From positions 5,549-69,548 of the forward strand of contig JAIETP010000008.1 of the NCBI GenBank assembly GCA_019744975.1: 64,000 bases of DNA, given 5' to 3'. The notes beneath the pieces are model-generated. The model did no database searches and had not been told where the DNA came from. It was given only the letters and a program-made list of their open reading frames with translations. A program made the translations under genes and the position numbers. Within the stretch, counting starts at the first letter, position 1; each line of letters opens with the position of its first letter. The DNA is from Burkholderiales bacterium (GTDB lineage Bacteria > Pseudomonadota > Gammaproteobacteria > Burkholderiales > SG8-41). Of this stretch, positions 37,445 to 57,535 are shown one piece after another.

Positions 37445-37477
37445 GATGGTCCTCCGGAGATGTTATGTTTTGGTGAA

Positions 37478-38953: not shown

Positions 38954-38977
38954 GATGCTGGTGCTCCTTGCAGTGGG

Positions 38978-39706
38978 CTATTTGTATTTTTTGGTGATCA
39001 GGTCGGCAACGCTGGCGCCGGCATCGATGTCGGCCTTGCGTTTGGTATCACCGGCGTCAATCCTGCGCGCGGCTTCCAGCACCAGTGCGGCTTTTTCCCT
39101 CGGGATGAAGGCAACGCCCGCTTCGTCGGCGCAGGCGATGTCGCCGGGTCTGACCTGGATGCCGCAGATTTGCACCGTGCCGTTGATTTCCACGGTCTGC
39201 GTGCGCCATTTGCCGGTGATCGGCGTGAAGCCTTTGCACCACACCGGCCAGTCCATGCCGCGGTACTGCTCGGGGTCGCGCACGGTGGCGTCGACGATGG
39301 CGCCGATGAAACCCTGGCGTTTCGCAATGGTCGCCGACTGGCCGCCCATATTGGAGCAGCCCATTACGCCTTCGATCACCAGCACATCGCCGGGTTCGGC
39401 GAGATTGTGCGCCTCGGTTTCGCCCTGGCCGCTGGTTTTGTCATTCGCCGCTTTGTGGATTTGCGCGGTGTGCGCGATGTTGCGCACCGTCAGCGCCGGG
39501 CCGACGATGCGTTTGCCGGTGTTGACCGGCGGCAGGATGTAACCGGGGATCACCGCGACAATGCCGAGTTCATCGCAGGCATCGGACAAGGTGCCGGTGA
39601 GGTCAACGAGGTTGCGGAACCCTTCCAGGATTTCGGGGGCGACGCGCGGCAGTTCCAGCATGCGAATGGCGTCGCGCGGCAGTTTGCCGAGGGTGGTTTT
39701 GGGCAT
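38978..39706 (-). CDS. RraA/HMG-aldolase family protein
   Basis: LSDACD, IVGPALTV, PGDVLVI, VDATVRD, VRPGDIACADEAGV; GGAGGAG RBS. Confidence 0.9.
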   Translation of the reverse strand: MPKTTLGKLPRDAIRMLELPRVAPEILEGFRNLVDLTGTLSDACDELGIVAVIPGYILPPVNTGKRIVGPALTVRNIAHTAQIHKAANDKTSGQGETEAHNLAEPGDVLVIEGVMGCSNMGGQSATIAKRQGFIGAIVDATVRDPEQYRGMDWPVWCKGFTPITGKWRTQTVEINGTVQICGIQVRPGDIACADEAGVAFIPREKAALVLEAARRIDAGDTKRKADIDAGASVADLITKKYK

Positions 39707-39820
39707 GGTTCTCCTCCAGTCGAGCGGGGAGTTTACATCGTGCGCGACTCGTACATGCTCCGGGCCCGAAGATGTGGACTTGGACTTAACCGACCTGGGT
39801 TCAATCAATAGTCAGTCGGG

Positions 39821-40636
39821 TCAGCCGGTTTTCAGCGCACACAGCGCGGCTGCAGTGCGCGTGGCAACTCCGAGCCGCCTGAATATGCTTTCAATCCGGG
39901 TCTTGACGGTGGACAGACTGATGCCCAGTGTTTTTGCGATCTCGTCATTGGTCTTGCCAGCGGCGATTTCGTGCAGCACTTCGGCTTCGCGCCGGCTGAG
40001 ACCAAAACGCGTCATCAGAGCAAACACCGCGGCTACGCCGTAGATGTATTCAGCGTCGACGGAACGATTGGTTTCTGCGCGCAGGCTGGCGAGTTCGGAG
40101 CGCGCGGCAGCGTTTTGATAGGCCTGAATAAAGTGCGGCCGCAGGCTGGTCAGAAGGTCACGTTCGGTTTCGCTGAAATCGCGATGTTTCCGGCTGACTG
40201 CGAAAAAAATCAGCGAGTCTCCGATACGCTGGCCGATGGTTAACTGGAAGCGCACGTCGGCCAGCGGACGGTAGAAATCCGCGTATAGCCCCGAGCTGCG
40301 CCAGCGTTGCTGGCTGACAAAGTCGCTGGTTTTGAGCGCGCTTGTACCGCTGCCGTTCACCTTGAGGATGTGCTGCACTGAGGGATGCTGCTCGACATGA
40401 TCGAAGAATGCCAGCCGCAGAACCGGGAAATCCGTGATCGGGTCGCTCAAGGCGCTCAAGGAATCGCCGTTCACCAGATTGATTTCGTTGTGACAGGTCA
40501 ATTCGCCGCCAAACTCGCGTTTAACCATCGACAGCGAGCGTTCGCGGAAGTCATCAAGGCTCTCGGCTGCATAAATGCCGAGCAGGATTTCCGAAAGCGG
40601 GTGCAGGAACTGGGAGGCGGTGGCCGGATGATTCAT
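39821..40636 (-). CDS. LuxR-type HTH transcriptional regulator with GAF-like N-terminus
   Basis: LSRREAEVLHEIAAGKTNDEIAKTLGISLSTVKTRIESIFRRLGV. Confidence 0.9.
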   Translation of the reverse strand: MNHPATASQFLHPLSEILLGIYAAESLDDFRERSLSMVKREFGGELTCHNEINLVNGDSLSALSDPITDFPVLRLAFFDHVEQHPSVQHILKVNGSGTSALKTSDFVSQQRWRSSGLYADFYRPLADVRFQLTIGQRIGDSLIFFAVSRKHRDFSETERDLLTSLRPHFIQAYQNAAARSELASLRAETNRSVDAEYIYGVAAVFALMTRFGLSRREAEVLHEIAAGKTNDEIAKTLGISLSTVKTRIESIFRRLGVATRTAAALCALKTG

Positions 40637-40860
40637 GGTCGGTTTGCGTTGTGATTAACGTTGCCCGGAATGTCATTCAGTGCGCTGACCATAAAATCAG
40701 ACTTTTGGCCGATGGTCAAAGTATAAAAGTATGAACATCATGCGCGGCAATGTCCTGGTTGGTTTTTTATCGGGTAATTTTCCAACAGGGTTATGCAGCG
40801 TTTGCGTGGCAGTGCGTAAGCGAATTAATTAAAATTAATTAAAAATCAATAACTTGCATA

Positions 40861-43800
40861 ATGCCGGCGTCATCAACTCGAAAAACAAGATCAAACCTTT
40901 CCAGATTCAAAGTCCATCCGCTTGCTGAGCGGGGGGCGTTTCCTTGGGGTTCATTTCGGCGCTTTGTGCTACGGCCGATTGCGTTTGCGGTCATGTTGTC
41001 CTGGACGGCCGGTGCAATGGCCAACCCGACCGGCGCCCAAGTCGCAGCCGGCGCGGCCAGCTTCCAGACCTCTGGCAAAACCCTGACGGTGACCAATACT
41101 CCGGGGACTATTCTCAACTGGTCATCGTTTTCCATCGCTGCCGGTGAGGTTACACGGTTTCAGCAGCAGTCTGCGCTGAGCGCGGTACTGAACCGCGTCA
41201 CCGGCGCCAATCCCTCCAGCATTCTCGGCACGCTGTCATCCAACGGCCGCGTATTCCTGGTCAATCCGCACGGCATCGTCTTCGGCCAGGGCTCGGTGAT
41301 CAACACCGCGGGTTTTGTCGCTTCGACGCTCAATATCAGCGATGCCGATTTCCTCGCCGGCCGGATGAAATTCGAGGGCGGTGGCCACGGCGTGTTGCGC
41401 AACGAAGGCGCGATCCAGGCCGCGGGGGATATTTTCCTGGTCGGCCCGCGGATTGAAAACGCCGGACTGATCAAAAGCGACAACGGCAGCGTGCTGCTCG
41501 CCGCCGGGCAGGCCATCACCATCACCAGTCCGGACGCGCATGGTGTGCAGTTCGCGCTGCAGGCGCCGACCGACAGCGCGCTGAACCTCGGCGTGATTGA
41601 GGCGAAAAATGCGGCAGGAATGTTTGCGGGGACTCTGAAACATTCAGGCGACATCCGCGCCACCAGCGCCAGTGTCGATGCCAGTGGCCGCGTGGTTCTT
41701 GCCGCGCAGAAGGATGCGATCCTCGACGGCAATGCCACCATCAATGTCGACAACATCGCGGGCAAGGGTGGTGCGGTGCAGATCACCGGTGAACGCGTCG
41801 GGCTGTTTGACAATGCGACCGTGACCGCGCGTGGTGTCGCGGGTGGCGGCACGATTCTGGTGGGCGGCGATTATCAGGGCGCGAATCCGGCCGTGCGTAA
41901 TGCAGCCCGCACTTTTGTCGGGTCCGGCGCCGTGCTTGATGCATCCGCTACTTCCAGCGGCGACGGCGGCAAGATCATCGTGTGGGCAGATGATGTCACC
42001 CGTTATTTCGGCAGCGCGGCAGTGCGCGGCGGCGCGCAGGGCGGTGACGGCGGGCTGGTCGAGGTGTCGGGCAAGAATGCGCTGGTTTTTGAAGGCCGCG
42101 TCGGGCTGGAGGCGGTCAATGGCAGGTCCGGTACGTTGTTGCTCGATCCTCTGAATATCACGGTGCAGGCGGGGGCCGGTACGTTGGATGGCGAATTGTC
42201 CGCGCCGGGCGATCCGCTGCTGGCTTTTGCTGAGCCTGACAACGTGACCACTGGCACGCTGAGCGTGGCGTCGCTGCAGGCCTTCACCACCGGTACCGTC
42301 GAGCTGCAGGCGAACAACAACATCACTTTTGATGCGGCGGTCACCATGCAGTCCGGCGTGTCGCTGAAAGCAGCGGCGATGAACAATGTCAACGTCAATG
42401 CCAACATCACCACTTCGGGCGGCGGCGTGCTGCGACTCGAAGCCGATACCGATCAATCGGGTGCCGGTGTGGTGAATCTGGGTACGGCCACCATCAACGC
42501 GCCCCTGATCATCGGTGATACCGGCAAGGAGTTTTCGGGGAATGCCAACATCACCGGCAATTTCAGCTTCGGCGGCAATACGCAGGTGTTCGGCCAGCTC
42601 AACCTCAGCACCGGTTCGATGACCGTTGCGACCGGGCAGACCCTGAGCCTGACCGGCGGCATGAACTGGGCGACCAGTGCGGGTATCAACGGGCCCGGCA
42701 CGGTCACCCTGCCATCAGGCCAGACACTGACACTCGCGGGAAACGCCGACCGTCCGCTGGTCAACGCGACCTTCAACAACAACGGCACGGTGGTCAGCCA
42801 GGACGCCGGCGCCAACCTGCTGATCAACGACGGCTCGGTGTTCAACAACGCCGGGGTGTATCGCATTGTGTCGGGCGCCTCGATCACCCGCAATTCGGGT
42901 GCCGGCACATTCAACAATACTGGCGAGCTGGAGATCGGCGGCGCGATCACCGGTACGGTCAGCAATGTGACCTTCACCAACACCGGCGGCACACTCGACA
43001 GTGGCACCGGCACACTGGACCTCGGTGCCGGCGGCAGCCATTCCGGCGCGCTGACCATACAGGGCAACCACGTCAGGCTGAATTCCGGTACGCACACTTT
43101 TGCCGACAGCACGACGGTGGCAGGCCGGCTCAACGTGGTCGGCGGTACGGCCAGCTTTGGTACGGTGACAGTCAACGGCCTGGTGAACTACACCAGCGGA
43201 GGCATCAATGTCACTGCGGGTGACACGCTGACGCTGAATGGCGGTATGAGCTGGGCGACCGCCTCGGGCATCAGCGGGCCCGGCACGATCACACTGCCCA
43301 CGGGGCAGACGCTGACGCTGGTGTCGAACATCGACCGCCCGCTGGTCAACGCGACCTTCAACAACAACGGCACGGTGGTCAGCCAGGACGCAGGCTCCAA
43401 CCTGTTGATCAATGACAGCTCGGTGTTCAACAACGCCGGGGTGTATCGATTCCAAACGGGCGGTGCCATCACCCGCAATTCGGGTGCCGGCACATTCAAC
43501 AACACCGGCGAAGTGGAGGGTGTTGCCGGCAACAACCAGGTCAACAACGTGACCTTCACCAATGCCGGCGGCACGCTCGACAGCGGTCCCGGCACACTTG
43601 AGCTGAATTCCGGCGGCAGCCATTCCGGTGCGCTGACGATGCAGGGCAACAACGTCAGGCTGAATGGCGGTACCCACACGTTTGCAGACAGCACGACCAT
43701 CGCGGGCATACTGAATGTGACTGGCGGCGGCACCGCCAGCTTCGGCACGGTGGCTGCCAACGGGCTGGTGAATTACACCGGTGGCGGATTCAATGTCACC

Positions 43801-46800
43801 GCCGGCGACACGCTGACACTGAATGCCGGCATGAACTGGTCCGAGGGTTTCAGCATTGCCGGTCCGGGCACGGTTGTGCTGCCGGCAGGGCAGACGCTGG
43901 CCACGGCCGGTGGCGGCGGCAGCCGTACTCTGGTCAACGTCACCTTCAACAACAACGGCACCTTCGACAGCGGCAGCAACGGCAGTGTGCTGGTCAATGA
44001 CAACTCGGTGTTCAACAACGCCGGGCTGTACCGCTTCCTGAACGCAGGCAATTTCATCAGCCGCAATTCGGGCGCAGGCACCTTCAACAACACCGGCACC
44101 ATCCAGGTCGGCGGTGCCTTTCCGAACAACATCAACAATGTGACCTTCACCAACACCGGTGGCATCCTGGACAGCGGCACCGGAACGCTGAACCTGAATG
44201 CCGGCGGCAGCCACTCCGGTGCGCTGACGATGCAGGGCAGCAATGTGTTCCTCGCCGGCGGCACCCACGATTTTGCCGACGGCGCGACCGTGGCCGGGCG
44301 GCTCAATGTGGATGGCGGCACGGCGAGTTTCGGCACGGTGACCACCAACGGACTGGTGACCTACGACGGCGTCGGCTTCAATGTCACCGCGGCCGACACG
44401 CTGACTTTGAACGGCGGCATGAACTGGACCGCCGGCGATATCGGCGGCCCCGGCACCATCGTGCTGCCTGCCGGGCAGACGCTGGCGATGAGTAATGCCG
44501 GCAACCGCGCCATGGTCAATGTGGTGTTCAACAACAACGGCACGGTGACCAGCCAGATCGGGGCGCAACTGCTGATCAACGACGGGTCGGTGTTCAACAA
44601 TGCGGGTGTGTACCGCTTTCTTGACAGCAGCGTGATCAACCGTACTTCCGGCACTGGCGCCTTCAACAACACCGGCGAAATCGAAGTGGTCGGCGCCTTC
44701 AACGGTTTTGTCAGCGGTGTGGCCCTCACCAACACCAGCGGCACACTCGACAGCGGTACCGGCATGTTGAGGCTGGACGCCAGCGGCACACATTCAGGCG
44801 CGCTGACGCTGCAGGGTACCAACGTGCAGTTGAACGCCGGCACGCACACTTTCGCCGACGGCACCACGGTGTCGGGCACGCTGAACGTGCAGGGCAGTGC
44901 CACCGCCAGCTTCGGCACCGTGACCATGAACGGGCTGGTGAATTACAGCAACGGTGGTTTCAATGTCACTGCCGGCGATACGCTGACGCTCAACGCCGGC
45001 ATGAACTGGACAGGTGCCGGCATCAGCGGGCCGGGTGCGATCACGCTGCCGGCGGGGCAGACGCTGGCGATCAGCGCGGGTGGTGGCAGTGCCCTGGTCA
45101 ACGTTACTTTCAACAACAATGGCACGGTGACCAGCCAGATCAACGGCGGCAGCGTGCTGATCAATGATGGTTCGGTGTTCAACAACGCCGGGGTGTTCCG
45201 CTTCCTGACCGGTGACGCCATCAACCGCACTTCGGGCACCGGTGTCTTCAACAACACCGGAGAAATTGAAGTGGGTGGTGCCTTCACCGCCTCGATGGCC
45301 AATGTGACGTTTACCAATACCGCAGGGACACTCGACAGCGGCACCGGCACGCTGAATCTGAATGCCGGCGGCAGTCATTCGGGAGCACTGACGATGCAGG
45401 GTACTGGAGTGCAGATGAGTGGCGGCACACATGATTTTGCCGATACCACCACCGTGGCCGGGCAGCTCAATGTGTCCGCAGGCGGCATCGCCAACTTCGG
45501 CACGGTGACCACCAACGGGCTGGTGAGCTACAGCAGCGGCGGTTCCGGATTCAATGTGACCGCGGGCGACACGCTGACGCTCAATGCCGGCATGAACTGG
45601 GCTGGCGGCGGCAATGTCAGCGGGCCGGGCACGGTCACGCTGCCGGCGGGGCAGACGCTGGCGATGGCCGGCGGTGGCGGCAACCGCGCGCTGGTCAATG
45701 TGACTTTCAACAACAACGGCACGGTGACCAGCCAGCTTGGTACGCAAGGCCTGCTGGTGAATGACGGTACGGTTTTCAACAACGCCGGGATGTATCGTTT
45801 TCTGAGTGGCGATTTCATCACCCGCAACTCGGGTACGGGCACTTTCAACAACACTGGCGAGATTGAAGTGGGCGGCGCGTTCACCGGCACCATGAACAAC
45901 GTGGTTTTCAGCAATACCAGCGCCACGCTGGATGCCGGTACCGGCATCTTCAATCTCGATGGCGGCGGCAGCTACACCGGTACGATGACCTTGCAGGGCG
46001 CCAACGTACGTCTGAATGGCGGCACCCACAATATTGCCGACGGCGTGACGGTGGCGGGACAGCTCAATGTGACTAGCGGCGCGACCGCCAACTTTGGCAC
46101 GGTGATCACCAACGGGCTGGTGAATTACGCGGCTACCGGTCTCAACGTCACCGCAGGCGACACGCTGACACTGAATGGCGGCATGAACTGGACGAGCGGC
46201 AACGTCAGTGGGCCAGGTACGGTCACGTTGCCTGCCGGGCAGACGCTGGCAATGACCAACACCAGTACCCATGCACTGGTCAACGCCACCTTCAACAACA
46301 ATGGCACCGTGACCAGCCAGATCGGTGGCCAGAACCTGCTGATCAACGATGGTTCCGTCTTCAACAACGCCGGGGTGTACCGCTTCCTTGGCAGCGATGC
46401 CATCGCCCGTACGTCCGGTGCCGGCACCTTCAACAACACCGGCACCATGCAGGTGGTCGGCGCTTTCACCGGCACCGTCAACGATGTGGCGTTCAGCAAC
46501 ACCGGCGGCACACTGGATAGCGGCGCCGGCACGCTGAATCTGACTCCCGGCGGCAATCATTCCGGCGCGTTGACGATGCAGGGTGGCAATGTGCGGCTGG
46601 CTGCCGGTACGCACAACTTTGCGGATGGCACGACGGTGGCCGGGCAACTCAATGTGGCCGGCGGCACCGCAAGCTTCGGTACGGTGACGACGAATGGTCT
46701 GGTGAATTACACCGCGGGCGGCTTGAATATAACCGCGGGCGACACGCTGACGCTCAATGGCGGCATGAACTGGGTGACCGGCGCGAACATTTTCGGCCCC

Positions 46801-48420: not shown

Positions 48421-51400
48421 CTCCGCGCAACCCGGCTGTTGTTGCCCTGCATTCAGGCGATTATCATAAGTATTTGATTTTATTGATAAAATTAATATTT
48501 TTCACAATCGCCATATATGGCCTGTTGCTAAGCGCGCCGGCGCAGGCCCAGGTCGCGCGCGTGCTGGATACCAAAGGCACGGCGTTGGTCGAACGCAGCG
48601 GCCAGATTCCGCGCCTGCTCGGCGCCGGTGAACGGCTTGATGAGCGTGACGTGATCAACGTCGCGCGTGACTCCTGGGCGATCCTCGAATTCAACGACCA
48701 GACCCGCATCACGCTGCGGCCGAACACCGTGTTCCGCCTCGACAGTTACAAGGCCGATGCGCCGGAAGCGATGCTGCTGGGACTGGTGAAGGGTGGACTG
48801 CGCGTGGTGACCGGTTTGCTCGGCAAGCGCAATCCCTCCGGCGTCAAAGTACAGACCGCGGTGGCGACCATCGGTATCCGCGGTACCGAGTTTGATGCGC
48901 GTTTGTGCGAAGCGGATTGTGCAGTTGAAGAACGCACGCGGCCTGCGCCGCGGCCGCTGGTGCTGCCGGTGGCGCGGGTGGTGGAGATGAATGGCGTGGT
49001 CGGTGCCGGGCGCGCCGGCGAATCAGTGCGCCTGCTGGTGCCGGGTGCGATGCTTAATGAAGGGGATGCGGTGGCCGTTGGCCGTGGCGGCAGCGCGCTG
49101 CTGGTGTTTCGTGACGGCGCGCGTGTGGCGCTGGCGCAGAACAGCCGCTTCGCGATCAACCGTTTCCGTTACAGCGAAGCGCAGCCGCGCGAAGGCTCGG
49201 CGTTTCTGACCTTGTATGACGGTTATGCACTGGTCAGCACCGGGCAACTTGCCAAGATCAGCCCTGATGCCTTTTTGTTTCGCAGCGCGCTGGGGGTGGC
49301 ACGGTTTTTGGGAAGTACCGGTGGTTTTTCCGGTTGTTTGGGTGCTGCCTGTGTCTCGGGCAGTGTATCGGTAAGCTCCGATGGCGTCACGGTGTCTGGC
49401 GGAGCGAGTGCCGGTGGGGCCAGCGCCACAGGCGAAACCACTGTAGACAGCGGTGGTGTCAGCGGATCGGGCTCAGTGACTGTAGGCAACAACACGGCAT
49501 CCGGATCGACCGGCACGGCCAAGCTCAATCTGCCCGGCGGCCAGCAGGTGCTGTCGAATGCCGAGCAGCTTGCGAATGAAGTGGTCGACGGCGTGCGTAA
49601 TATCACTGCCGTGGTGGTGTCGACGGTTGGTAACCAGAATCAGAACTTCCAGCAACAGGTGGGTAATGTTGTAACCCAGACGCAGAACACCTTCCAAAAC
49701 ACCACGCAGGTGGTCACCAATGCAGCAGTGGATCAGGCGGTCAATGCGCTGAATACGGCGACGGCACCCATCGTTGCCGAGATGACCGCGCTGCTGACGC
49801 AGATGCGCAACAACCCGCCGCAGACCGAGGCCGCCGCCCAGCAACTGTCCACGCGTGTGACGCAGTTATCCCAGTTGCTGACCACGGCATTGAATCAGGC
49901 GAGGACTGCGGCCGGGGCGGTTGCGCAGAATGATGCTTTCCGCGCGAGTTATGGTCTGGCAATGGCGGAATATCTGACCTTCAATTCGGTATTGGGGGCT
50001 GGAATGGCAGGGACTGGCGGCACTGGCGGAAGCCACTTTGCACAGCAGGCCATGTACGACTCAGAAATCAACAGGATTCTTGCCGATCCCTATGCGCTGG
50101 GCAGTATCGGCTTGGTAGGTCTCTCTGCTGGAGATTTGATCGAAGCACGTAATGCAGGTATTTACGGTGGCTCGGGTGTCATTCAGCGCGAGATCGCTTC
50201 GCACCTTGCAAGCCAGGGCAGTGCGGCGGCCAAGTCTTTTTTCAACGAAGCTCAATCAACTGCAACCACGTTCCAGCAGCGCGCAGCCGAAGAGGCGGCG
50301 CGCGTGGCTGCTGAGGCCGAGAGAATAGCCGCTGCCGCAAAAGTCGAGGCAGAGGCCAAGTTTGCTGCCCAACAGAAGATTGTCGAAGAGAAGCTCGCCC
50401 GGATCAAAGCCTTGGCTGTGTCTGCGGCGGACCGAGCCTCGTCAGCCATGAAGGAGTTGCACGCAGTTTTGGAGCGGATAAAAGGTCTTCCTGCTGACGG
50501 CGCTGCCGCAGAAACTGTTTTGGCGCAGGCGCGCAAGGACCTGACGCGAATTTCCGCAGAACTTAACGCGGTTGCAGCCTTGACTGCTGATCCGCAGTTG
50601 AGAAGCCAATTGCGACAACTTTCAGTACTCGCGACGGCGGTTATCTTGGCGCCAGGTCTGACTGGCGCGGTTGTAGCAGCGCTTGCCGTCGATGCGATAG
50701 TCGTGGCGGCACTGACGACTCTTGCCACAACCCCGGCAATGCTGGTCGCATCAGCCATGCTTTTGGAGTCGGTCGGTATGCAAGAGGCGGCTGCCGTATT
50801 ACGCGGTGCTGCCGGGGATTTTCCTGATACGGCTCAGACAGTCCTGGTGGTGCGATCAATGCTGCTCAGCCTTCCTGCGACCGCAGCCTCGGCAGCAAGG
50901 CGGACAGTCGAGAACGTATTGGCGCGGTTGGAGCAGGATGCCACCCGGTTGGCAGCACAATCATCAAGGGCTGCCGCCGATGCTAAGTTCGCCAGAGCCA
51001 AAACCGATGTACAAACTACCGCCGAGATCGCTAGGATTATTACAACATTCACTGCCAATAAGGATGTTCGGGAGGCACAGGAAAGCCTGGAAAGACTCAG
51101 GGCCGAGCTCAGCAAATTGGGTGAGCAGGGGCGTATTTTACTGGGTCAGCTTGACCGCCTTTCTTTAACTGGCGGCGATGCGGTGGCGATAATGCTTGCT
51201 TTTCTCGACGGCATGAGAAAACAGTTTTCAGCAGATCGGGGCGGCGATGCCACCTCCAATTCAGCGCAAACATCAAATTCAGAAAAGACTGCTACAGACC
51301 CGATCGTTGTTGTCCATGATGGTGCAGTAGAGATCATTGGCCGCGGCCGTGTGCTGAAAGGTGAAATGCTGGCTGCGACCGGTGGTCCGATGCGTATGGC

Positions 51401-51710
51401 CGGCCTCGCCACTGTGCCGGATGTCAAGGTGGATCCCGATCTGTTCAAAAGCGCTGATAAAGCGGTTGATGAGGGCCTCTACGTCTGGGTCCGTGACGGC
51501 GCGGTTCGTGTGACCAAGGATGCGGAGTCGGTGGATGTTGCAGCCGGCAATGCCGCGGTGGTGACGGATCATGTGCGCCTGCTCGATGTTGTGCCGAACT
51601 TCATGCGCTTTGATGGCACGCCGCGTCCGCTGCCCAGCGGCAGCGGCTCGGTGATCGATACCTTCAGGGCGGGTGACGGGGCGATACTCAATATGTGCAG
51701 TGTGCGTTGA
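48411..51710 (+). CDS. FecR-domain protein with nested domains and a large central insert
   Basis: Signal peptide; FNDQTRITLRPNT, ATIGIRGTEF; second copy FRDGARVALAQNS; C-terminal VHDGAVEI and GLYVWVRDGAV halves. Confidence 0.85.
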   Translation: MHLTPRNPAVVALHSGDYHKYLILLIKLIFFTIAIYGLLLSAPAQAQVARVLDTKGTALVERSGQIPRLLGAGERLDERDVINVARDSWAILEFNDQTRITLRPNTVFRLDSYKADAPEAMLLGLVKGGLRVVTGLLGKRNPSGVKVQTAVATIGIRGTEFDARLCEADCAVEERTRPAPRPLVLPVARVVEMNGVVGAGRAGESVRLLVPGAMLNEGDAVAVGRGGSALLVFRDGARVALAQNSRFAINRFRYSEAQPREGSAFLTLYDGYALVSTGQLAKISPDAFLFRSALGVARFLGSTGGFSGCLGAACVSGSVSVSSDGVTVSGGASAGGASATGETTVDSGGVSGSGSVTVGNNTASGSTGTAKLNLPGGQQVLSNAEQLANEVVDGVRNITAVVVSTVGNQNQNFQQQVGNVVTQTQNTFQNTTQVVTNAAVDQAVNALNTATAPIVAEMTALLTQMRNNPPQTEAAAQQLSTRVTQLSQLLTTALNQARTAAGAVAQNDAFRASYGLAMAEYLTFNSVLGAGMAGTGGTGGSHFAQQAMYDSEINRILADPYALGSIGLVGLSAGDLIEARNAGIYGGSGVIQREIASHLASQGSAAAKSFFNEAQSTATTFQQRAAEEAARVAAEAERIAAAAKVEAEAKFAAQQKIVEEKLARIKALAVSAADRASSAMKELHAVLERIKGLPADGAAAETVLAQARKDLTRISAELNAVAALTADPQLRSQLRQLSVLATAVILAPGLTGAVVAALAVDAIVVAALTTLATTPAMLVASAMLLESVGMQEAAAVLRGAAGDFPDTAQTVLVVRSMLLSLPATAASAARRTVENVLARLEQDATRLAAQSSRAAADAKFARAKTDVQTTAEIARIITTFTANKDVREAQESLERLRAELSKLGEQGRILLGQLDRLSLTGGDAVAIMLAFLDGMRKQFSADRGGDATSNSAQTSNSEKTATDPIVVVHDGAVEIIGRGRVLKGEMLAATGGPMRMAGLATVPDVKVDPDLFKSADKAVDEGLYVWVRDGAVRVTKDAESVDVAAGNAAVVTDHVRLLDVVPNFMRFDGTPRPLPSGSGSVIDTFRAGDGAILNMCSVR

Positions 51711-51795
51711 GTAAAAATATCAATAAAAACAAATACTTAATGATGACTCTCGATCTGGCTTCAGCGGCTGCACCAGTTCCCTGTCGATCTGCTAG

Positions 51796-51819
51796 GATCA
51801 TTACGATCATACTGGTCAT
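51796..51819. promoter_or_regulatory. Putative Phd-type operator, three G(A/G)TCAT repeats at 9-bp period
   Basis: gatcat-tac-gatcat-act-ggtcat just upstream of the antitoxin RBS. Confidence 0.45.
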
Positions 51820-51830
51820 GGGAGATTGCA

Positions 51831-52124
51831 ATGATCCGCGAAGCCCCCGCTGTCAAAGTGCGGCAAAACCTCGGCGAATTGCTGAACGAGGTGCAATACA
51901 AGCGCGACTCGGTGGTGATACTCAAGGATGGCAAGCCGGTAGCGGCGCTGATCGATATCGGACTGTTCGAGCGTATCCGCGCGATGGAGACGCGGTTCAC
52001 CGAAATCACCAACAAGATACAGGCTGCTTTTGCCGGCTTGAGCGATGATGAACTGGAAACACTCATTGACGAGGCGGTGGAATACGCGCGCCGTCCGCCA
52101 CGCAAGGCACGCAAATCCAAGTGA
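51831..52124 (+). CDS. Phd/YefM-family antitoxin
   Basis: VRQNLGELLNEV....VVILKDGKPVAALI. Confidence 0.9.
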   Translation: MIREAPAVKVRQNLGELLNEVQYKRDSVVILKDGKPVAALIDIGLFERIRAMETRFTEITNKIQAAFAGLSDDELETLIDEAVEYARRPPRKARKSK

Positions 52125-52636
52125 GGATCGTACTCGACACCAACGTCCTGCTCTCGGGGCTGACCCGGGCGGATCGACCGCCGGGGATTATCCTGTCAGC
52201 CTGGCACGAGGGGCAATTCGATCTGGTGATATCGGAGCCGATGATCGAGGAGATCCTGCGCGTTTTTCATTATCCCAAAGTGCGCAGGGTGCTCGCGAAA
52301 GCGGCCGTGACCTACGAGGATCCTCGCGAAATCACGGAAATGCTGAGATTGAGGGCGATCTTGGTGGACGTTACTGGCGTGGTGCTGCAGACGGTACCGC
52401 AAGACCCGAAGGACGCACTGGTGCTCGCAACGCTGATCGCAGCCGAAGCGGAATGGCTGGTCACCGGCGACAAGCGGGATCTGCTGTCGCTGGGGCTGCG
52501 CAATGTCATCACGGCGCGGGATTTCCTGTCGCGGCTCGAGGCGCTGCGCCTGCCGCCCCTGGCGGAGCAGCCGCGGGCGGCCTATCGGGTGGCGCGGGAA
52601 CGGCGCAAGCGTCCGGCAGCGGTCGCGCAAGCCTGA
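52121..52636 (+). CDS. PIN-family putative toxin
   Basis: RIVLDTNVLLSG, DPKD, LVTGDKRDLL; GTGA overlap. Confidence 0.9.
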   Translation: MRIVLDTNVLLSGLTRADRPPGIILSAWHEGQFDLVISEPMIEEILRVFHYPKVRRVLAKAAVTYEDPREITEMLRLRAILVDVTGVVLQTVPQDPKDALVLATLIAAEAEWLVTGDKRDLLSLGLRNVITARDFLSRLEALRLPPLAEQPRAAYRVARERRKRPAAVAQA

Positions 52637-54192
52637 GGCGGTTTGCCGCCGGTCTGGCCGGTGTGCTGCTACTGGCGATACTTTCGTTGGTCGCGGATGA
52701 CGCATCCGCGCAAACTGCTGCCGAGCCGCGCTTCGCCGTCAGCGGCTACAAGGTGGAAGGTGACAACCCGCTGTCGGTAGAGGCAACCCAAGCATTACTC
52801 GCGCCGTACACCGGCGAGATCGTCAGCATCGACCGCCTGCAGGCTGCCGCCGCTGCGCTGGAGCAGACCCTCAAGGACCGCGGTTACGGTTTTCTGCGTG
52901 TGGTGATTCCACCGCAGGATGCCAAGGGCGTGATCACCCTGCGTGTGCTGGCGTTCAAGCTGAACACCATCAACGTCAGCGGCAACCAGCATTTTGATAC
53001 CGATAACATCCGCCGCAGCCTGCCGGCGCTGCAAAGCGGCGCAACACCCAATCTGCTGGAAATCGCGCGCGCGCAGGCCCTGGCCAATGACCACGCCTCC
53101 AAACAACTCTCGGTGACCATCCAGCAGGGCAAGGCGACGGATACCGTCGATGCCGCGGTCAAGGTCGAAGACAGCAAGCCACTGCAGTTTTTCGCCAGCC
53201 TCGACAACACGGGCAACAAGCAAAGCGGCCATACGCGGCTGGGTGTCGGTGTGCAGCACAGCAATCTGTTCAACCGCGATCATGCGCTGACGGCGACCTG
53301 GACCACCTCGCCCGACGGCCATGTCGATGATCTGTCGCAGTATGGTTTTTATTACCGCGCGCCGATCTACGCATGGAACGGCGCCCTGTCGGCGTATTAC
53401 ACGCGGTCTGACACCGATTCCGGCGTGGTGGCGAATTTTTTCAATGTCAGCGGCAGCGGTGAATTTTATGGAATACGCTGGACGCACCGCCTGCTGCCTT
53501 TTGGCAGTTACAGCCATGCCGCCGAGGTCGGCCTCGAAAACCGTTTTTTCGGCAATGACGTGACGTTCAGCGGCACCCCCATCGGCACCGATGTGCGCAG
53601 CCGGCCGCTGCTGCTGCGCTACAGCGGGCGGCTCGATGGCGCGGCGTATGGCGTGCGCGGCAGCCTGGAATTCGCGCGCAACCTCTCCGGCGGTGCCAAC
53701 AACACGGATATTGAATACGCCGCGAATCGCGCAGGTGCGACCGCGGACTGGCAGGCCTGGCGTTACTCGGTGGAGGGTTCGCAGGCGCTGGGGGCCTGGG
53801 CCGTCACTGCAAAACTGCGCGGCCAGGCATCAAGCGACGCGCTGATTCCCGGTGAACAGTTCGGCTTGGGTGGCGCATCCGGCGTACGCGGGCTGGAAGA
53901 ACGTGAAGGAACCGGTGGCCAGGGCCTGCTCGGCAGTATCGAAGCAATGACGCCGCAGATTGTCGAAGGCCTGCGCCTGCTGGCCTTCGCTGATGCCGGC
54001 CAGGTGCGCAACCATCAGGCCGGGGCCGGTGTGCCGGAACGGGAAGGCGCCTCCGGTGCGGGCCTCGGCATGCGTTACCAGTGGCGGCGCAATTTCACCA
54101 TGGCGGTGGACTGGGCTTATGTGCTGAACGGTGCGGGTACGACCAACAAACACGACAACCGCGCGCACGCTACTTTGGCATTCCGCTACTAG
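52633..54192 (+). CDS. TpsB ShlB/FhaC/HecB-family outer-membrane transporter (start uncertain)
   Basis: Signal-like LRRFAAGLAGVLLL..ASAQ, POTRA (VVIPPQ), LDNTG, EQFGLGG..GVRG, terminal AFRY. Confidence 0.9.
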   Translation: MRRFAAGLAGVLLLAILSLVADDASAQTAAEPRFAVSGYKVEGDNPLSVEATQALLAPYTGEIVSIDRLQAAAAALEQTLKDRGYGFLRVVIPPQDAKGVITLRVLAFKLNTINVSGNQHFDTDNIRRSLPALQSGATPNLLEIARAQALANDHASKQLSVTIQQGKATDTVDAAVKVEDSKPLQFFASLDNTGNKQSGHTRLGVGVQHSNLFNRDHALTATWTTSPDGHVDDLSQYGFYYRAPIYAWNGALSAYYTRSDTDSGVVANFFNVSGSGEFYGIRWTHRLLPFGSYSHAAEVGLENRFFGNDVTFSGTPIGTDVRSRPLLLRYSGRLDGAAYGVRGSLEFARNLSGGANNTDIEYAANRAGATADWQAWRYSVEGSQALGAWAVTAKLRGQASSDALIPGEQFGLGGASGVRGLEEREGTGGQGLLGSIEAMTPQIVEGLRLLAFADAGQVRNHQAGAGVPEREGASGAGLGMRYQWRRNFTMAVDWAYVLNGAGTTNKHDNRAHATLAFRY

Positions 54193-54222
54193 GTTGGCAT
54201 CACTGTCAGCCGGGGTCATCCC

Positions 54223-54867
54223 ATGACGCAACAGCCGAAACTCCTGCCTTGTCCCTGCTGCGGGAACAAGACATTGTCGCGGCGTGGCGCCGGCGAGGAA
54301 TGCAGGCGCTGCCGCTGGTGTGATGATCCCGGGCAGAATGAACAACAGGCCGACCAGGTGATTGAGGGGCGCAACCACGGGCTGAGCCTGAACGCGGCGC
54401 GCAAGGTTCATCAGCACTACGGTTCGATCAGGCCAGCGGACTACATCCCCAACCATGTGCCGCTGGGCCGGCGGGTGTTCAGCGGCGTGATCGCTGCGCT
54501 GGTCATCGCCTACTGCGGGTTCAGCCTGTGGGTCGGGACCATGATCCTGCCGGGTGGCAGCGGTAACCGGCGGCCTGTTCAGCTTGAGGGAATGGAAGTC
54601 TGGCTGATGGTTGCGGCGGGGGTGGCCGGGGTGATGTACGGCGTACTGGCCATCGTCGATCACTACGACAAACGCCGCAACGAACATGTCTATCACAAGG
54701 CGGTGAAAGTCAGCTATGTGCTGATGGCGGTGTTCATGGGCCTGGCGCTCGTGGTCAAGGTGTACCGTGAGTTTGGCGGGTGGCTTGCGTTGGCGATGGG
54801 TTTCATGATGCTGGTGATCGTGTGCGGGGTGATTACCAGCGTCAGGGATCAGAAGATCGAATACTGA
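54223..54867 (+). CDS. CPCC cysteine-rich Zn-finger membrane protein, paralogue 1
   Basis: CPCC..RGAGEECRRCRW.DD...N.GLSL..AR, ~4 TM segments, DHYDKRRNE. Confidence 0.8.
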   Translation: MTQQPKLLPCPCCGNKTLSRRGAGEECRRCRWCDDPGQNEQQADQVIEGRNHGLSLNAARKVHQHYGSIRPADYIPNHVPLGRRVFSGVIAALVIAYCGFSLWVGTMILPGGSGNRRPVQLEGMEVWLMVAAGVAGVMYGVLAIVDHYDKRRNEHVYHKAVKVSYVLMAVFMGLALVVKVYREFGGWLALAMGFMMLVIVCGVITSVRDQKIEY

Positions 54868-54882
54868 TAGCCGATATTGCCA

Positions 54883-55776
54883 ATGACTCCGCCCAGCGAA
54901 AAATACGACCTGCTGCTGACCGGCCGCATCCTGCCCGGCCACAAACGCGAGGTGGTGGCGGCTGCGCTGGCGAAACTGATGCGGATATCCGAAGCGCAGG
55001 CGCTGGAACTGCTGTCGGGGCGTGAGCAGACCGTCAAAGGCGGACTTGAACTGGCTGCAATGGGGCGTTATGTCCGGGCGCTGCGCGATGCGGGTGTGGA
55101 GACCCGTGCCGAGCTGGCGATCGCCGGTGCAATGATGGATTGCCCCTGCTGCCGCAAGCGTTCCCTGAAGCAGCGCGGTGCCGGCGAGTTGTGCCGGGTC
55201 TGCGGCTGGCGGGATGATGCGGAGCAGAACGAGTCCTGTCCTGATCAGGTGATTCCCGGACGCAACTGGGGGTACAGCCTCGCGCAGGCGCAAAAACAAT
55301 TCGCTGAACGGGGTTCGCTGGAGCCGCTGAGTTACGTGCCCAATGTGGTGCCGCTGAAAAAACGCATCACCGAAACGCTGGTGACTTTGCTGGTTCTGGC
55401 CTATTGCGGCTACAGCCTGTGGCGCGATGCATTGTTCATACCCAACATCAGCCGTAATCAATTCGGCAGCGTACCGAGCTTCACGCTGCACGGTGTTGAG
55501 GCTTGGCTGGTTTCAGGGGCGCTGCTTTTTGGCGTGCTGCAGTTTTTTGTGCCTGTCATCGACCATTACGACAAACGCAACAACGAGGCGCTCTCCGAAA
55601 AGATCGCACTGATCTGCCGGGTGCTGATGTTTGTGTTTCTGGCGCTGTGGCTGGGGGCGAATATTTATCTGGGATCAGGTGGCGACCTGCGGGTGCTTGC
55701 GGTGCTTGTAGTGGTGGGGGTGGTATTGCTGGTGATGGGCATCAAGGTCTACAAGAACAGAAATAAATATCAATAA
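54883..55776 (+). CDS. CPCC cysteine-rich membrane protein, paralogue 2, with extra N-terminal domain
   Basis: YDLLLTG..VAAALAKL.. N-domain; CPCC..RGAGELCRVCGW; DHYDKRNNE. Confidence 0.8.
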   Translation: MTPPSEKYDLLLTGRILPGHKREVVAAALAKLMRISEAQALELLSGREQTVKGGLELAAMGRYVRALRDAGVETRAELAIAGAMMDCPCCRKRSLKQRGAGELCRVCGWRDDAEQNESCPDQVIPGRNWGYSLAQAQKQFAERGSLEPLSYVPNVVPLKKRITETLVTLLVLAYCGYSLWRDALFIPNISRNQFGSVPSFTLHGVEAWLVSGALLFGVLQFFVPVIDHYDKRNNEALSEKIALICRVLMFVFLALWLGANIYLGSGGDLRVLAVLVVVGVVLLVMGIKVYKNRNKYQ

Positions 55777-55827
55777 AATCAAATACTTATGTAATTTTAT
55801 AGTGTCGCGCTTATTGTGGGAGGGAAG

Positions 55828-56877
55828 ATGAGTGTGCCCTGGTTGAGTGAGCGTTACATGCTGCTGATCAGCGGCAAGCTGCGCGCCGGATTGTCCCGCG
55901 CCGAGGCGGCTGACGCTTTGCAGCGCCTGCTGGCAGTGGATGCAGCGCAGGCCGCGCATTGGCTGCAGGGCGGCTGGCAATTGTTGCGTATCGGGCTTGA
56001 TGCCGGCGAGGCGAAGCGCCTGGCCGGGCTGCTGTCCAAGGCGGGCATGGAGACAAGGCAGCGGCGGATGACCGACGCCGAGAAAGCCCATGCCATGGGC
56101 TACCGTGAAAGCGCCGCAGATTTGCGGGCCTTCGAGGACGATCAGGAGACATTGAGCGCGGCGCATCCCGAACTGGTGCCGGCGCTGGAGGCGATGTCGA
56201 TGCCGGCCCATCCTGAAGAAAACCAGCCAGCGTCGGGGAAACTGCCTTGCCCCTGCTGCGGCTGGCCGGCGCTGACACAGCGTGGCGCGGGTGAGGAATG
56301 CGTGGCCTGCGGCTGGCGTGATTATCGCGGGCAAAGCGAATATCAGCCGGACAAGGTGGTGCCGGGGCGTAATTTCGGCCTGAACCTGTCCGAAGCGCGC
56401 AAGGAATACGAGGCCTATGGTTCGATCAATCCGGCGCACTACACGCCGAATGCAGTGCCGCTGCGTACGCGGTTTTTCAATATTCTGCTGGCGCTGTTTT
56501 TTGTGGCTTATTCCGGTTACTGCCTGTGGATTGGCCAGATGTATTTTCCGTTCATCAACAAATATGCGCCGGGCCAGAGCATGGCCATTACTTTTCAAGG
56601 AGCCGAAACCTGGGTGATGGCGGCGGCTTTGCTGAGCTCGGTGCTGTTCTGTGTGCTGTCTGTCGTTGATCACTATGACAAAAGACGCAACGAACGCAGC
56701 TACCAGCTAGGAGTGCAAATCAGTATGGTGCTGTTCGGTTTGTTCATGATGATTGCAATGATCATGTACACATTCCGGGTGGAAGGTCTGGGTACCGCGT
56801 TGTGGATGGTGTTTGGAACGCTGGTGATACTGGGCGCGCTGGCCGTGCGTTTCAGCCGCGGCAGGATTGAATACTGA
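55828..56877 (+). CDS. CPCC cysteine-rich membrane protein, paralogue 3, with extra N-terminal domain
   Basis: GGAGG RBS; YMLLISG N-domain; CPCC..RGAGEECVACGW; DHYDKRRNE. Confidence 0.8.
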   Translation: MSVPWLSERYMLLISGKLRAGLSRAEAADALQRLLAVDAAQAAHWLQGGWQLLRIGLDAGEAKRLAGLLSKAGMETRQRRMTDAEKAHAMGYRESAADLRAFEDDQETLSAAHPELVPALEAMSMPAHPEENQPASGKLPCPCCGWPALTQRGAGEECVACGWRDYRGQSEYQPDKVVPGRNFGLNLSEARKEYEAYGSINPAHYTPNAVPLRTRFFNILLALFFVAYSGYCLWIGQMYFPFINKYAPGQSMAITFQGAETWVMAAALLSSVLFCVLSVVDHYDKRRNERSYQLGVQISMVLFGLFMMIAMIMYTFRVEGLGTALWMVFGTLVILGALAVRFSRGRIEY

Positions 56878-56888
56878 GCTGAGTGCCG

Positions 56889-57482
56889 ATGGATGCAGGA
56901 AGGGATGACGCCATGAATAAAGGCATCGAATTCCAGAACATTGATCTCGCCCTGTTTAAGCGCCTGCTGCGGGAGCGGCCGTTCGCGGTCCTGGCCGTGC
57001 TGTCGCTGGCGGGTTGCGTATTCGTGCCGCATGGCAATACCTTCAGCGCCGGACAGATGATGACCACGCCACTGCTGGTTGGTGGCTGTGCGGGATTTGT
57101 CCTGGCGCTGTCCGCGGCGCTGCGTGATCCGGAGGTGGCGGAGCGCCGCCCGATGCTGTTCGACACGCGCAACGCCTTGTTCTACGCGATCCAGGCCGCG
57201 GTGGTTGCCGGACTTGCCGCCATCCTGCTGTCTTATGCCGTGAACCGCTGGATACCCGCGGGGTCGTGGCAGTGGCGGGAGTTGCAGGTCAAGGCCGTGC
57301 ATCGTGAATCGGGTCGTTTCGGTCTCAGCGAGACGGCATTCATCAACGAGGAGCGATGCTGCCTCGGCTTGTCAGGCACGGATTATGGCGGAGTCGGCGC
57401 GCGGGTCGAGTTCCGCATGCGGCGGGGTCTGCTCGGCTACTGGGTCTACAGCGAATACCGCCACCCCGCAAGTCCACGGTGA
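56889..57482 (+). CDS. Hypothetical membrane protein (start uncertain)
   Basis: Three TM segments and C-terminal RRGLLGY; co-oriented with the CPCC genes. Confidence 0.65.
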   Translation: MDAGRDDAMNKGIEFQNIDLALFKRLLRERPFAVLAVLSLAGCVFVPHGNTFSAGQMMTTPLLVGGCAGFVLALSAALRDPEVAERRPMLFDTRNALFYAIQAAVVAGLAAILLSYAVNRWIPAGSWQWRELQVKAVHRESGRFGLSETAFINEERCCLGLSGTDYGGVGARVEFRMRRGLLGYWVYSEYRHPASPR

Positions 57483-57503: not shown

Positions 57504-57535
57504 AAAAAAACGGCCGGGAAATCCCGGCCGTTTTT
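57504..57535. terminator. Bidirectional rho-independent terminator
   Basis: AAAAAAACGGCCGGGA-AA-TCCCGGCCGTTTTT between convergent genes. Confidence 0.9.

Follow-up and report, generated by a model that had tools for sequence, protein, structure and literature searches.

FecR-domain proteins as conserved third partners of two-partner secretion loci, with a possible role as disulfide-linked retention modules supplied in trans

A third partner in two-partner secretion loci

The gene cluster considered here lies at positions 39821-57482 of a 64,000-nucleotide stretch of DNA from a Burkholderiales bacterium (GenBank assembly GCA_019744975.1, contig JAIETP010000008.1). Below, the whole stretch is called the window and the genome to which it belongs, 3.7 Mb in size and 99% complete, is denoted G000. 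The cluster encodes a TpsA exoprotein, a TpsB protein and, beside tpsA, a FecR-domain, retention-module-like protein that we call the partner. Our main finding is that this FecR-like protein is a conserved third partner of a widespread subclass of two-partner secretion (TPS, or type Vb) systems. Moreover, judging from profile and fold matches, its domains share homology with the retention module found in adhesins of the LapA/MpIBP type. Since the TpsA has one lone cysteine, and the retention-module homologue encoded next to it has one lone odd cysteine, we propose that the adhesin may be tethered by a disulfide to a retention module supplied in trans, and we give this proposal roughly an even chance of being right. 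Full-text literature searches, with subscription papers and supplements lying outside them, returned no description of a FecR-domain third TPS partner or of a trans disulfide anchor, and beyond the VreR sigma-regulator context they returned nothing linking a FecR-domain protein to TpsA/TpsB. The suggestion of a first-pass annotation of this DNA that the TpsA/FecR/TpsB triad is undescribed thus agrees with what we found.

The mechanism that we envisage is that of a three-component type Vb operon for a large repetitive surface fibre, placed under a divergent LuxR-type regulator. TpsA would use the Sec route for export and pass through TpsB with its N-terminus leading, and the product of the third gene would be a soluble periplasmic protein made of two FecR-fold, retention-module-like domains and a C-terminal beta domain. 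Its C1096 would pair with C2518 of TpsA as an intermolecular disulfide, and the folded partner, unable to cross the TpsB pore, would act as a periplasmic stopper. The fibre would stay cell-bound until freed by reduction or proteolysis, and the retention module would in effect come in trans. The partner of this genus bears, in addition, what appears to be a fast-evolving helical insert of 300-900 residues, to which we assign no role. A broader version of the proposal, which we hold somewhat more tentatively, is that of a widespread type Vb class with a covalent trans bridge reversible by redox change or proteolysis, in which a helical stalk could span the periplasm and couple the fibre to the envelope.

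Conservation of the partner gene next to TPS genes

An orthologous partner with both ends kept is present in 5 of the 24 other genomes of the same genus (G002, G003, G007, G019 and G020), so that with G000 the locus occurs in 6 of 25. According to tblastn on the fetched loci it occupies one chromosomal site, between a gene for an 811-residue protein and the ribonucleotide reductase (RNR) gene. DNA nearly identical to that of the window was also found in drinking-water and freshwater metagenome runs.

The association with TPS genes extends well beyond the genus. A search with the C-terminal domain of the partner against 401 genomes of the order matched 10 genomes. Outside the genus, the partner gene adjoins TpsB in all nine fetched loci (7 genomes), and TpsA is visible in six of them; the gene order is either TpsA-partner-TpsB or TpsA-TpsB-partner. 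In a class-wide sample, 20 of 400 genomes matched at E<=1e-40, and TpsA and/or TpsB were found within the 1.5-kb flanks of 15 of the 17 full-length loci, the exceptions being one locus cut by the contig start and one 1212-residue variant. On a still larger scale, a profile built from seven short family members was run against 1.84 billion representatives, where 27,226 proteins passed E<=0.001 and 1,155 passed E<=1e-30. No CHASE2 or extracytoplasmic function (ECF) sigma gene was seen in the annotated related loci, and a short FecR-like protein gave no tblastn match at E<=1e-20 against PLSDB plasmids.

Homology to the LapA-type retention module

The relationship to retention modules is seen with both sequence profiles and structures. 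The NCBIfam model NF033682 (retention_LapA) matches the window partner at residues 188-252 (E 6.3e-5, 23.2 bits) and all seven short family members at E<=0.01; the best E-value is 3.4e-19, and one member reaches 55.4 bits against a cut-off of 50. When the family profile was compared with all PDB sequences, the sole match was 5ix9_A (E 3.9e-5), annotated as a "cell surface anchoring domain". Foldseek superimposes the modelled partner on the same structure with a target-normalised TM-score of 0.74, a root-mean-square deviation (rmsd) of 1.3 A over 61 columns and a probability of 1.0. According to a passage in 10.1101/198937, the LapA retention module stalls the adhesin in the outer-membrane pore, and 5ix9 served there as a modelling template. 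The family profile also matches the N-termini of all nine examined giant open reading frames (ORFs) from other Pseudomonadota, which range from 2040 to >3500 residues and have no TPS domain; one of them is annotated with FecR and cadherin/He_PIG/Big_9 domains. Since the module is N-terminal in all nine and the TPS domain absent, none of them is a TpsA-FecR fusion. A phylum-wide profile search returned mostly single-domain matches. Evidently, the Pfam FecR family takes in retention modules.

The homology does not make the partner a member of a LapA system. It is a separate exported protein encoded in a TPS operon, and the G000 genome has no match to the LapG family (PF06035); for these reasons we think that the partner works like a retention module at most.

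Architecture of the partner

The partner gene (48411-51710, + strand) encodes 1099 residues, recognised by PF04773 with E 2.5e-15. The protein starts with a cleavable signal peptide (cut between AQA and Q) and would be periplasmic. Two beta-sandwich domains follow at residues ~49-307, each closed by a near pair of cysteines (166/170 and 309/314). After a variable insert (residues ~315-955) come a conserved C-terminal beta domain (residues ~960-1075) and a flexible tail, ...NMCSVR, with the odd Cys1096. An AlphaFold (AF2) model built from a 103-row alignment has a predicted local distance difference test (pLDDT) score above 90 for residues 50-300, of 80-95 for residues 965-1070 and below 50 for the tail. 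By overall structural similarity, the best PDB matches are PupR (6ovk_R; Z 15.8, rmsd 2.7 A, 134 residues) and 4m0n (Z 15.4). The PupR/FecR-type alignment runs from model residue 77 to 1072 (only the first and last aligned residues are reported), and this hints that in the model the N- and C-terminal parts of the partner may pack as one core from which the helical insert projects.

The insert (nucleotides 49353-51275, delimited by orthologue alignment and the predicted structure) is the hypervariable part of the protein. It is of low complexity and rich in Ala, Gly, Ser and Gln; the model has residues 312-380 disordered and Gly/Ser-rich and residues 377-940 as long helices with pLDDT of about 50-85. 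Pfam and NCBIfam scans gave no enzyme-family match for it. Total length among the orthologues varies from 730 to 1379 residues, and only the N-terminal ~310 and the C-terminal ~100-150 residues align; the central regions combine Gly/Ser runs with Gln/Asn/Thr-rich and Ala/Glu/Lys-rich segments, and tandem repeats are present in the inserts of G019, G020, G002 and G007. Even the partners of G000 and G020, which share 71% identity over residues 38-623, cannot be aligned over residues 624-942. Outside the genus, the partner is usually a protein of 440-530 residues without an insert (most of the top 150 representatives). The alignments thus make the insert a lineage-specific elaboration and not a family-wide cargo. 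A partner enlarged independently was observed in another lineage (L036, G412:C163:4206-6407), where the protein exceeds 733 residues, carries proline-rich tandem repeats of ~190 residues, and keeps the C-terminal domain and a ...DMCVVR tail.

The FecR family is associated with sigma-factor regulation, and we looked for the corresponding features. Family scans and the signal-peptide check revealed no anti-sigma domain, membrane anchor or output domain in the partner, and a hydropathy scan of the orthologues picked out the signal-peptide segment only. The first-pass annotation had noted that no ECF sigma factor or CHASE2 cyclase accompanies the cluster, and family scans of the cluster genes agree; an adjacent ECF sigma factor and a TonB-dependent transducer were likewise absent from both the cluster and the annotated related loci. 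Three CHASE2 genes lie elsewhere in G000, and one related locus has a sigma-70-family gene nearby (Sigma70_r1_2, r2 and r4 matches). Because the partner has a cleavable signal peptide and no anti-sigma domain match, sigma-factor signalling by it is unlikely.

Matched terminal cysteines

The window TpsA contains one cysteine in 2519 residues, the penultimate C2518. The partner contains, besides its two close pairs, one odd cysteine four residues from the end, and Phd, PIN and TpsB, encoded in the same cluster, have no cysteine at all. The same pattern is found in other loci. In the genus and order samples, 12 of 12 TpsA C-termini from FecR-linked loci end in a last or penultimate cysteine, usually after an acidic stretch, and in the class sample all seven visible TpsA tails have a cysteine in the last four residues; across all samples, this gives 19 of 19 adjacent TpsA tails. 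On the other side, every genus and order partner with a visible C-terminus has a cysteine 2-4 residues from the end. A cysteine in the last six residues is present in 15 of 17 class-sample partners and in 142 of 150 family representatives, several of the eight exceptions being short fragments. As a background, 153 of 2865 crude ORFs of at least 150 residues from G000 (5.3%) have a cysteine in their last four residues.

G000 itself encodes five FecR-domain proteins. The two that stand beside Cys-terminated TpsA-like genes have a C-terminal cysteine, and the other three, among them a CHASE2-adjacent one, do not. The second of these pairs is on contig C16 (37-6127), where a TpsA-like protein ending in GGVCK is followed by a Crp gene and by a 262-residue single-domain FecR-like protein ending in ECIVR; four other genomes of the genus have the Crp/FecR-like pair at 81-87% identity. 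Contig C16 begins inside the TpsA-like protein, and contig C33 (19537-23332) has a TpsB gene and a TpsA N-terminus running off the contig end, so the assembly may have divided a single locus between the two contigs. The CHASE2 gene on contig C1 (118016-121080) adjoins a FecR-domain protein of ~140 residues (mature) with no cysteine in the mature part; this pairing is of the usual kind and separate from the secretion loci.

TpsA and TpsB

The tpsA gene (40861-48420, + strand) was identified with Pfam PF05860 and NCBIfam models. [quoted passage not shown] At the C-terminus, a conserved beta module precedes a linker rich in Pro and Ala and, after it, the acidic tail ...EEEEKKGAVLECI. The last 200 residues are kept at 44-58% identity in six relatives, and a motif scan of TpsA detected no VENN, VDNN, NEALV or ELYN motif; the conserved C-terminus and the lack of a VENN-type motif bear out the first-pass remark that this TpsA has no evident C-terminal toxin. 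Two candidate features of TpsA were set aside. One is a Pfam row for RnlA_toxin_N (E 9.3e-12), which is probably a summed repeat artefact, no single stretch passing the threshold; the other is a LapG-type "AAG" site in the tail (VAAG, noticed by eye), which is not kept in aligned orthologues.

TpsB (52633-54192, + strand, ~519 residues) is encoded on the same strand, 4.2 kb downstream of tpsA, and consists of a POTRA_2 domain (PF08479 E 2.1e-12) and a ShlB barrel (PF03865 E 5.7e-24). By their families TpsA and TpsB are a type Vb pair, with TpsB-dependent export of TpsA predicted. A longer TpsB ORF of 715 residues starting at 52045 crosses the upstream toxin-antitoxin (TA) genes in another frame and is an artefact. 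Upstream of the TpsB signal peptide there is no in-frame ATG, GTG or TTG, and the only start-like codon is a CTG at the stop of the PIN gene. Because no other start precedes the signal peptide and G003 shares the arrangement, the true start is most likely the CTG at 52633. In TA-less relatives, tpsB starts with GTG or ATG after an AT-rich spacer; in both TA-bearing genomes, G000 and G003, this canonical start is lost. As the signal peptide of TpsB begins at the CTG overlapping the PIN stop, TpsB translation may depend on translation of the toxin gene.

Gene order and optional insertions

The first-pass annotation had described a LuxR regulator divergent from a single co-oriented cluster of overlapping or closely spaced genes, ending at a terminator at 57504. 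This description holds: the ORF listing and family scans place the genes at or near the positions it gave, a strong hairpin is found at 57506-57535, and all the families named in it (TpsA, FecR-domain protein, TA pair, TpsB and three CPCC proteins) were recovered. The regulator (39821-40636, - strand, 271 residues) belongs to the LuxR family with a GerE helix-turn-helix domain (PF00196 E 2.3e-16) and is transcribed divergently from tpsA. The intergenic region between the two (40637-40860) has lower G+C and, by base composition and consensus matches, probably contains promoters: G+C is 0.53 in 40000-40999 against ~0.63 in the flanks, and two sigma-70-like matches on the + strand (consensus matches only) lie at 40670-40697 and 40806-40835. 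Upstream of the regulator is the ORF of 811 residues (37376-39811), which belongs to no known family and is conserved at the relatives' loci, and just before it, at ~35095-36456, there is a partial paralogue 35% identical to it.

Genes of the cluster overlap or lie 5-120 nt apart and would be co-transcribed. The ATG of the partner gene overlaps the Cys2518 codon of tpsA (48412-48414, + strand; GAATGCATCTGA), giving an overlap of 10 nt between the two genes. Between the partner gene and tpsB there are genes for a Phd/YefM-family antitoxin (51831-52124, + strand, 97 residues; PF02604 E 1.5e-7, TIGR01552) and a PIN_3 toxin (52121-52636, + strand, 171 residues; PF13470 E 1.9e-19, TIGR00305), whose GTG start overlaps the phd stop (GTGA). 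The families and this overlap make them a predicted type II TA pair. The PIN stop and the tpsB start in turn overlap by 4 nt (CTGA). The 10-nt and 4-nt overlaps suggest translational coupling. Downstream of tpsB the gaps are 30, 9, 39 and 5 nt up to the end of the CPCC block, after which stands the single strong terminator, a bidirectional intrinsic-terminator-like hairpin with a 13-bp stem (8 G-C pairs), a 4-nt loop and flanking A and T runs. It separates the cluster from the convergent RNR large-subunit gene (57553-61584, - strand), which contains an intein with a LAGLIDADG domain (PF14890, PF14528). The RNR genes of G003 and G007 align over the full length, intein included; in G020, residues 1-296 and 675-1343 align contiguously, which means a gene without the intein.

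Comparison of the six orthologous loci separates the core from the additions. In G020, a long TpsA is combined with a partner of 1141 residues and no TA pair, and TpsB is followed by CPCC1-3 and the 199-residue ORF at 81-84% identity. G019 has a TpsA of ~1380 residues, a partner of 1379 residues and no TA pair; after TpsB, in place of the CPCC block, comes an unrelated RDD-ankyrin gene, encoding a 647-residue RDD-family membrane protein with C-terminal ankyrin repeats (L013:16018-17961). The short TpsA of G002 is accompanied by a partner interrupted by unknown residues (X), again without a TA pair, and the contig ends in TpsB. G003 has a TpsA with its N-terminus cut by the contig end, a partner of 730 residues and both Phd and PIN; G007 has a short TpsA, a partner of 1210 residues and no TA pair; in both, RNR follows TpsB directly. 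The phd gene of G003 is at the same place with 84% identity and the PIN orthologue is 58% identical, and tblastn found no phd match in the loci of G020, G019, G002 and G007. Orthologues of the LuxR-type regulator (78-79% identity) stand beside tpsA in G019 and G002. At the same position, judging by sequence only, G007 has a different 336-residue protein with a GerE-like C-terminus, and G020 an ORF that starts like a response-regulator receiver domain, followed by an ORF of 598 residues. Since the TA pair and the CPCC block each occur in only 2 of 6 loci, the conserved core is regulator-TpsA-partner-TpsB, and the other two are optional insertions. We propose that Phd/PIN is a mobile addiction module that has entered between the partner gene and tpsB. 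Between tpsB and RNR, the locus takes up membrane-protein cargo of different kinds.

The CPCC block

Three CPCC genes follow tpsB on the + strand: CPCC1 (54223-54867; PF14206 E 1.1e-12), CPCC2 (54877-55776; E 5.6e-12) and CPCC3 (55816-56877; E 1.4e-9), with PF14206 scores of 48.0, 45.7 and 38.0 bits, all above the cut-off of 24.5. The block ends with a 199-residue membrane ORF (56883-57482, + strand) that has no Pfam or NCBIfam match and has an orthologue at the same position in G020 (84% identity). CPCC1 is composed of an N-terminal CPCC zinc-ribbon-like domain and four membrane helices (read from sequence) with a DHYD(K/R)R(R/N)NE loop; CPCC2 and CPCC3 share this architecture and add N-terminal extensions of ~85 and ~140 residues. 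The alignment has invariant CPCC..C..C..W.D and DHYD.R.NE columns, and the paralogues are 41-46% identical (CPCC2 41% and CPCC3 46% to CPCC1). The block has a G+C of 0.58-0.59, the flanks one of 0.62-0.64. The block is probably read through from tpsB and co-transcribed with it.

Proteins of this composition are rare. Of 40 genus genomes, two contain full-length CPCC-membrane genes, and CPCC-membrane protein matches form 12 clusters in a collection of 5.8 billion protein sequences. A species-representative scan gave 69 loci, and all except that of G020 match mainly the membrane part, typically as free-standing proteins of 110-125 residues; none of the 67 other membrane-domain loci has a TpsA, TpsB or FecR-like gene, and no neighbour family recurs in more than five of the 65 analysed. 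A metagenome scan with CPCC1 produced 19 loci, all with the CPCC domain alone. In the Protein Atlas, the membrane part of CPCC1 matches unnamed clusters of 111-117 residues with scores of 0.80-0.82. The membrane part thus belongs to a family of ~110-125 residues (loci L053-L119, e.g. L055:9995-10336) with the motifs YTPNHIP...AYG..G.W and VVDHYD(R/K)RNNE, found in Proteobacteria, Bacteroidota, cyanobacteria and others. Overall, the CPCC block is an acquired accessory and not part of the conserved system.

Weighing the alternatives

Several observations speak against the trans-anchor proposal or limit it. The disulfide, the binding and the retention are all inferred. The window partner reaches 23.2 bits with NF033682, short of the curated cut-off of 50. 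The fold alone is no proof of plug function, and the best matches by Z are anti-sigma FecR/PupR domains. Two of the 17 class-sample partners have no terminal cysteine, and the order-level locus of G219 has a partner and TpsB with no TpsA detected in the fetched 20 kb. Two other TpsA paralogues of G000 end in PVCR and PVCK without an adjacent FecR-like gene, and among TPS-bearing homologues of the TpsA C-terminal module 24 of 29 end in cysteine, their gene contexts not being visible. The two G000 paralogues mean that a terminal cysteine also occurs outside FecR-linked loci, so either a single partner serves more than one fibre or the cysteine does something else. Finally, the relatives are not independent, so homologue counts overstate significance. 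A complex prediction, run without controls, for partner residues 45-315 and 955-1099 with the last 75 residues of TpsA scored 0.06 against a mark of 0.32 and weighs neither way. As to these homologues themselves, many TpsAs of 1400-4000 residues from Burkholderiales and Gammaproteobacteria metagenome bins contain no more than 1-3 cysteines, one of them penultimate (...C[RKQSN]), a pattern seen in 24 of the 29 TPS-bearing hits; of the five others, three carry a caspase-family domain (PF00656).

Instead of anchoring the fibre, the partner could serve TpsB from the periplasm in signalling or gating, as a sensor module of the FecR/CHASE2/TpsB-like type that lacks CHASE2 and reports the state of the fibre (its secretion or surface exposure), perhaps to the LuxR regulator. 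The anti-sigma character of the best PDB matches (Z 15.8 for 6ovk_R and 15.4 for 4m0n) would fit such a role, as would the pairing of FecR-domain proteins with CHASE2 sensors elsewhere, including the pair on contig C1 of G000 and the LysM-FecR + CHASE2 kinase operons described in PMC5192318. The locus with a FecR-like protein and TpsB in which TpsA was not detected, and the constant presence beside tpsA of a regulator gene whose type varies by species, point in the same direction. However, a protein with a cleavable signal peptide and no membrane anchor, anti-sigma or output domain is a poor candidate for a sensor, no inner-membrane receptor gene is conserved at the loci, and the matched C-terminal cysteine would be left without a role, the CHASE2-adjacent FecR protein of G000 being devoid of it. 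We therefore consider a signalling function unlikely. Equally unlikely in our estimate is a periplasmic chaperone or pilot, which would hold the unfolded C-terminus of TpsA (maybe through a transient mixed disulfide) or prime TpsB for export or folding. Such a helper would account for the same linkage and cysteine data, and translational coupling of tpsA with the partner gene fits a stoichiometric helper, but the module to which the partner is homologous has been shown to act in retention in an outer-membrane pore. We know of no precedent, the review PMC5422565 considered, for a dedicated disulfide chaperone in TPS systems. It is less probable still that the terminal cysteines have nothing to do with each other, TpsA, for example, dimerising through its own cysteine or the cysteines being modified in some other way, and the partner binding non-covalently or not at all. 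Cys-terminated TpsAs without an adjacent FecR-like gene do exist; against this stand the co-occurrence of both features in all 19 adjacent pairs with a visible TpsA tail and, within G000, the restriction of the terminal cysteine to TpsA-linked FecR proteins.

The first-pass annotation had suggested antagonism or signalling, with a variable payload that may sit in the FecR protein and the CPCC membrane paralogues as immunity or receptor proteins; as weighed here, the insert would be a polymorphic toxic payload exported via the TPS pair. Of the checks it suggested, variation of the insert between genomes was borne out, and the variability between species is indeed high. The CPCC genes are diverged tandem paralogues (41-46%) placed close after tpsB with one strong terminator beyond, and the insert of G000 has a hydrophobic stretch at residues 737-781, which we take to be loosely like the hairpin of pore-forming toxins. 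Co-variation of the insert with the CPCC genes, a further check, was not borne out: between G000 and G020 the CPCC proteins are 81-84% identical and yet the distal halves of the inserts (624-942) cannot be aligned, unlike a cognate toxin-immunity pair. In relatives, the CPCC genes proved largely unlinked from the system, G020 alone among the five other loci carrying the block; their presence in only two of the six orthologous loci and in two of the 40 genomes of the genus, and a membrane domain known from 67 other loci, none near a TPS or FecR gene, do not suit immunity or receptor proteins. Nor does the insert look like a payload, as it is low-complexity and helical, has no enzyme-family or other family match and is absent from most family members; the hydrophobic stretch was seen in no other scanned sequence. 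Our literature searches found no paper that links CPCC to immunity or gives PF14206 a function, and "CPCC" is absent from the first 300,000 characters of a polymorphic-toxin survey (PMC3482391). Taken together, these results leave the toxic-payload explanation very improbable, and the trans-anchor proposal remains the one that we prefer.

Implications and comparison with known systems

Descriptions of two-partner secretion usually present a pathway of two proteins, and retention or release of TpsA is known for few cases (HMW1, HxuA, CdrA). If the proposal is true, a conserved third protein that gives a stopper in trans via a single disulfide would represent a new anchoring principle. It would connect the ways in which type 1 (LapA) and type Vb adhesins are retained, and would account for a large family of "FecR domain" proteins now annotated as sigma-factor regulators. 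For annotation, FecR-domain genes beside tpsA/tpsB are not to be read as iron or sigma signalling, and the CPCC genes found here are not to be called immunity genes. The window itself adds the occurrence of the system in Burkholderiales and the wider class, the link to the LapA retention module, and the genus-specific hypervariable insert.

Among known systems, HMW1/HMW1B and HxuA/HxuB of Haemophilus influenzae come close to the proposed arrangement. In the account given in a section of PMC5422565, a disulfide-bonded loop at the C-terminus locks HMW1 and HxuA in their TpsB, so that a type Vb adhesin is held by a small periplasmic element with a disulfide that does not fit through the TpsB pore. 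Here, too, a cysteine stands at the extreme C-terminus after a linker. In those adhesins, however, both cysteines are in one chain, whereas here TpsA has one and the second is proposed to reside on a separate operon-encoded protein. CdrA/CdrB of Pseudomonas aeruginosa, with LapG, likewise offers a repetitive TpsA fibre, a variable number of stalk repeats and, keeping the fibre in its TpsB, a C-terminal retention element, which passages of PMC13405001 and 10.1101/198937 call a "cysteine hook". As far as these passages go, the hook of CdrA is intramolecular and LapG releases the fibre at a TAAG site, in contrast to the present genome with no PF06035 match.

Loci for contact-dependent inhibition (CDI; CdiBAI and BcpAIOB) also combine TpsA/TpsB with extra small genes; some of them include BcpO, an accessory periplasmic lipoprotein gene, as mentioned in part of PMC5422565. 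Unlike in CDI loci, TpsA here lacks both a VENN-type motif and a variable C-terminal toxin, its C-terminus being conserved among orthologues, and tpsA is followed not by an immunity gene but by the FecR-like gene. With the FecR/PupR anti-sigma regulators the partner shares PF04773 and the beta-sandwich fold (Z 15.8 to 6ovk_R), but it has no anti-sigma domain match or membrane anchor, and the cluster has no ECF sigma gene or TonB-dependent transducer. The retention module of LapA/MpIBP, which are RTX adhesins of type 1 secretion (5ix9), is related to the FecR-like family in both sequence and fold. In LapA, the module is the adhesin's own N-terminus and works with a TolC-like pore; here, by contrast, it is duplicated, is placed on a separate Sec-exported protein encoded in a type Vb operon, and is equipped with a C-terminal cysteine.

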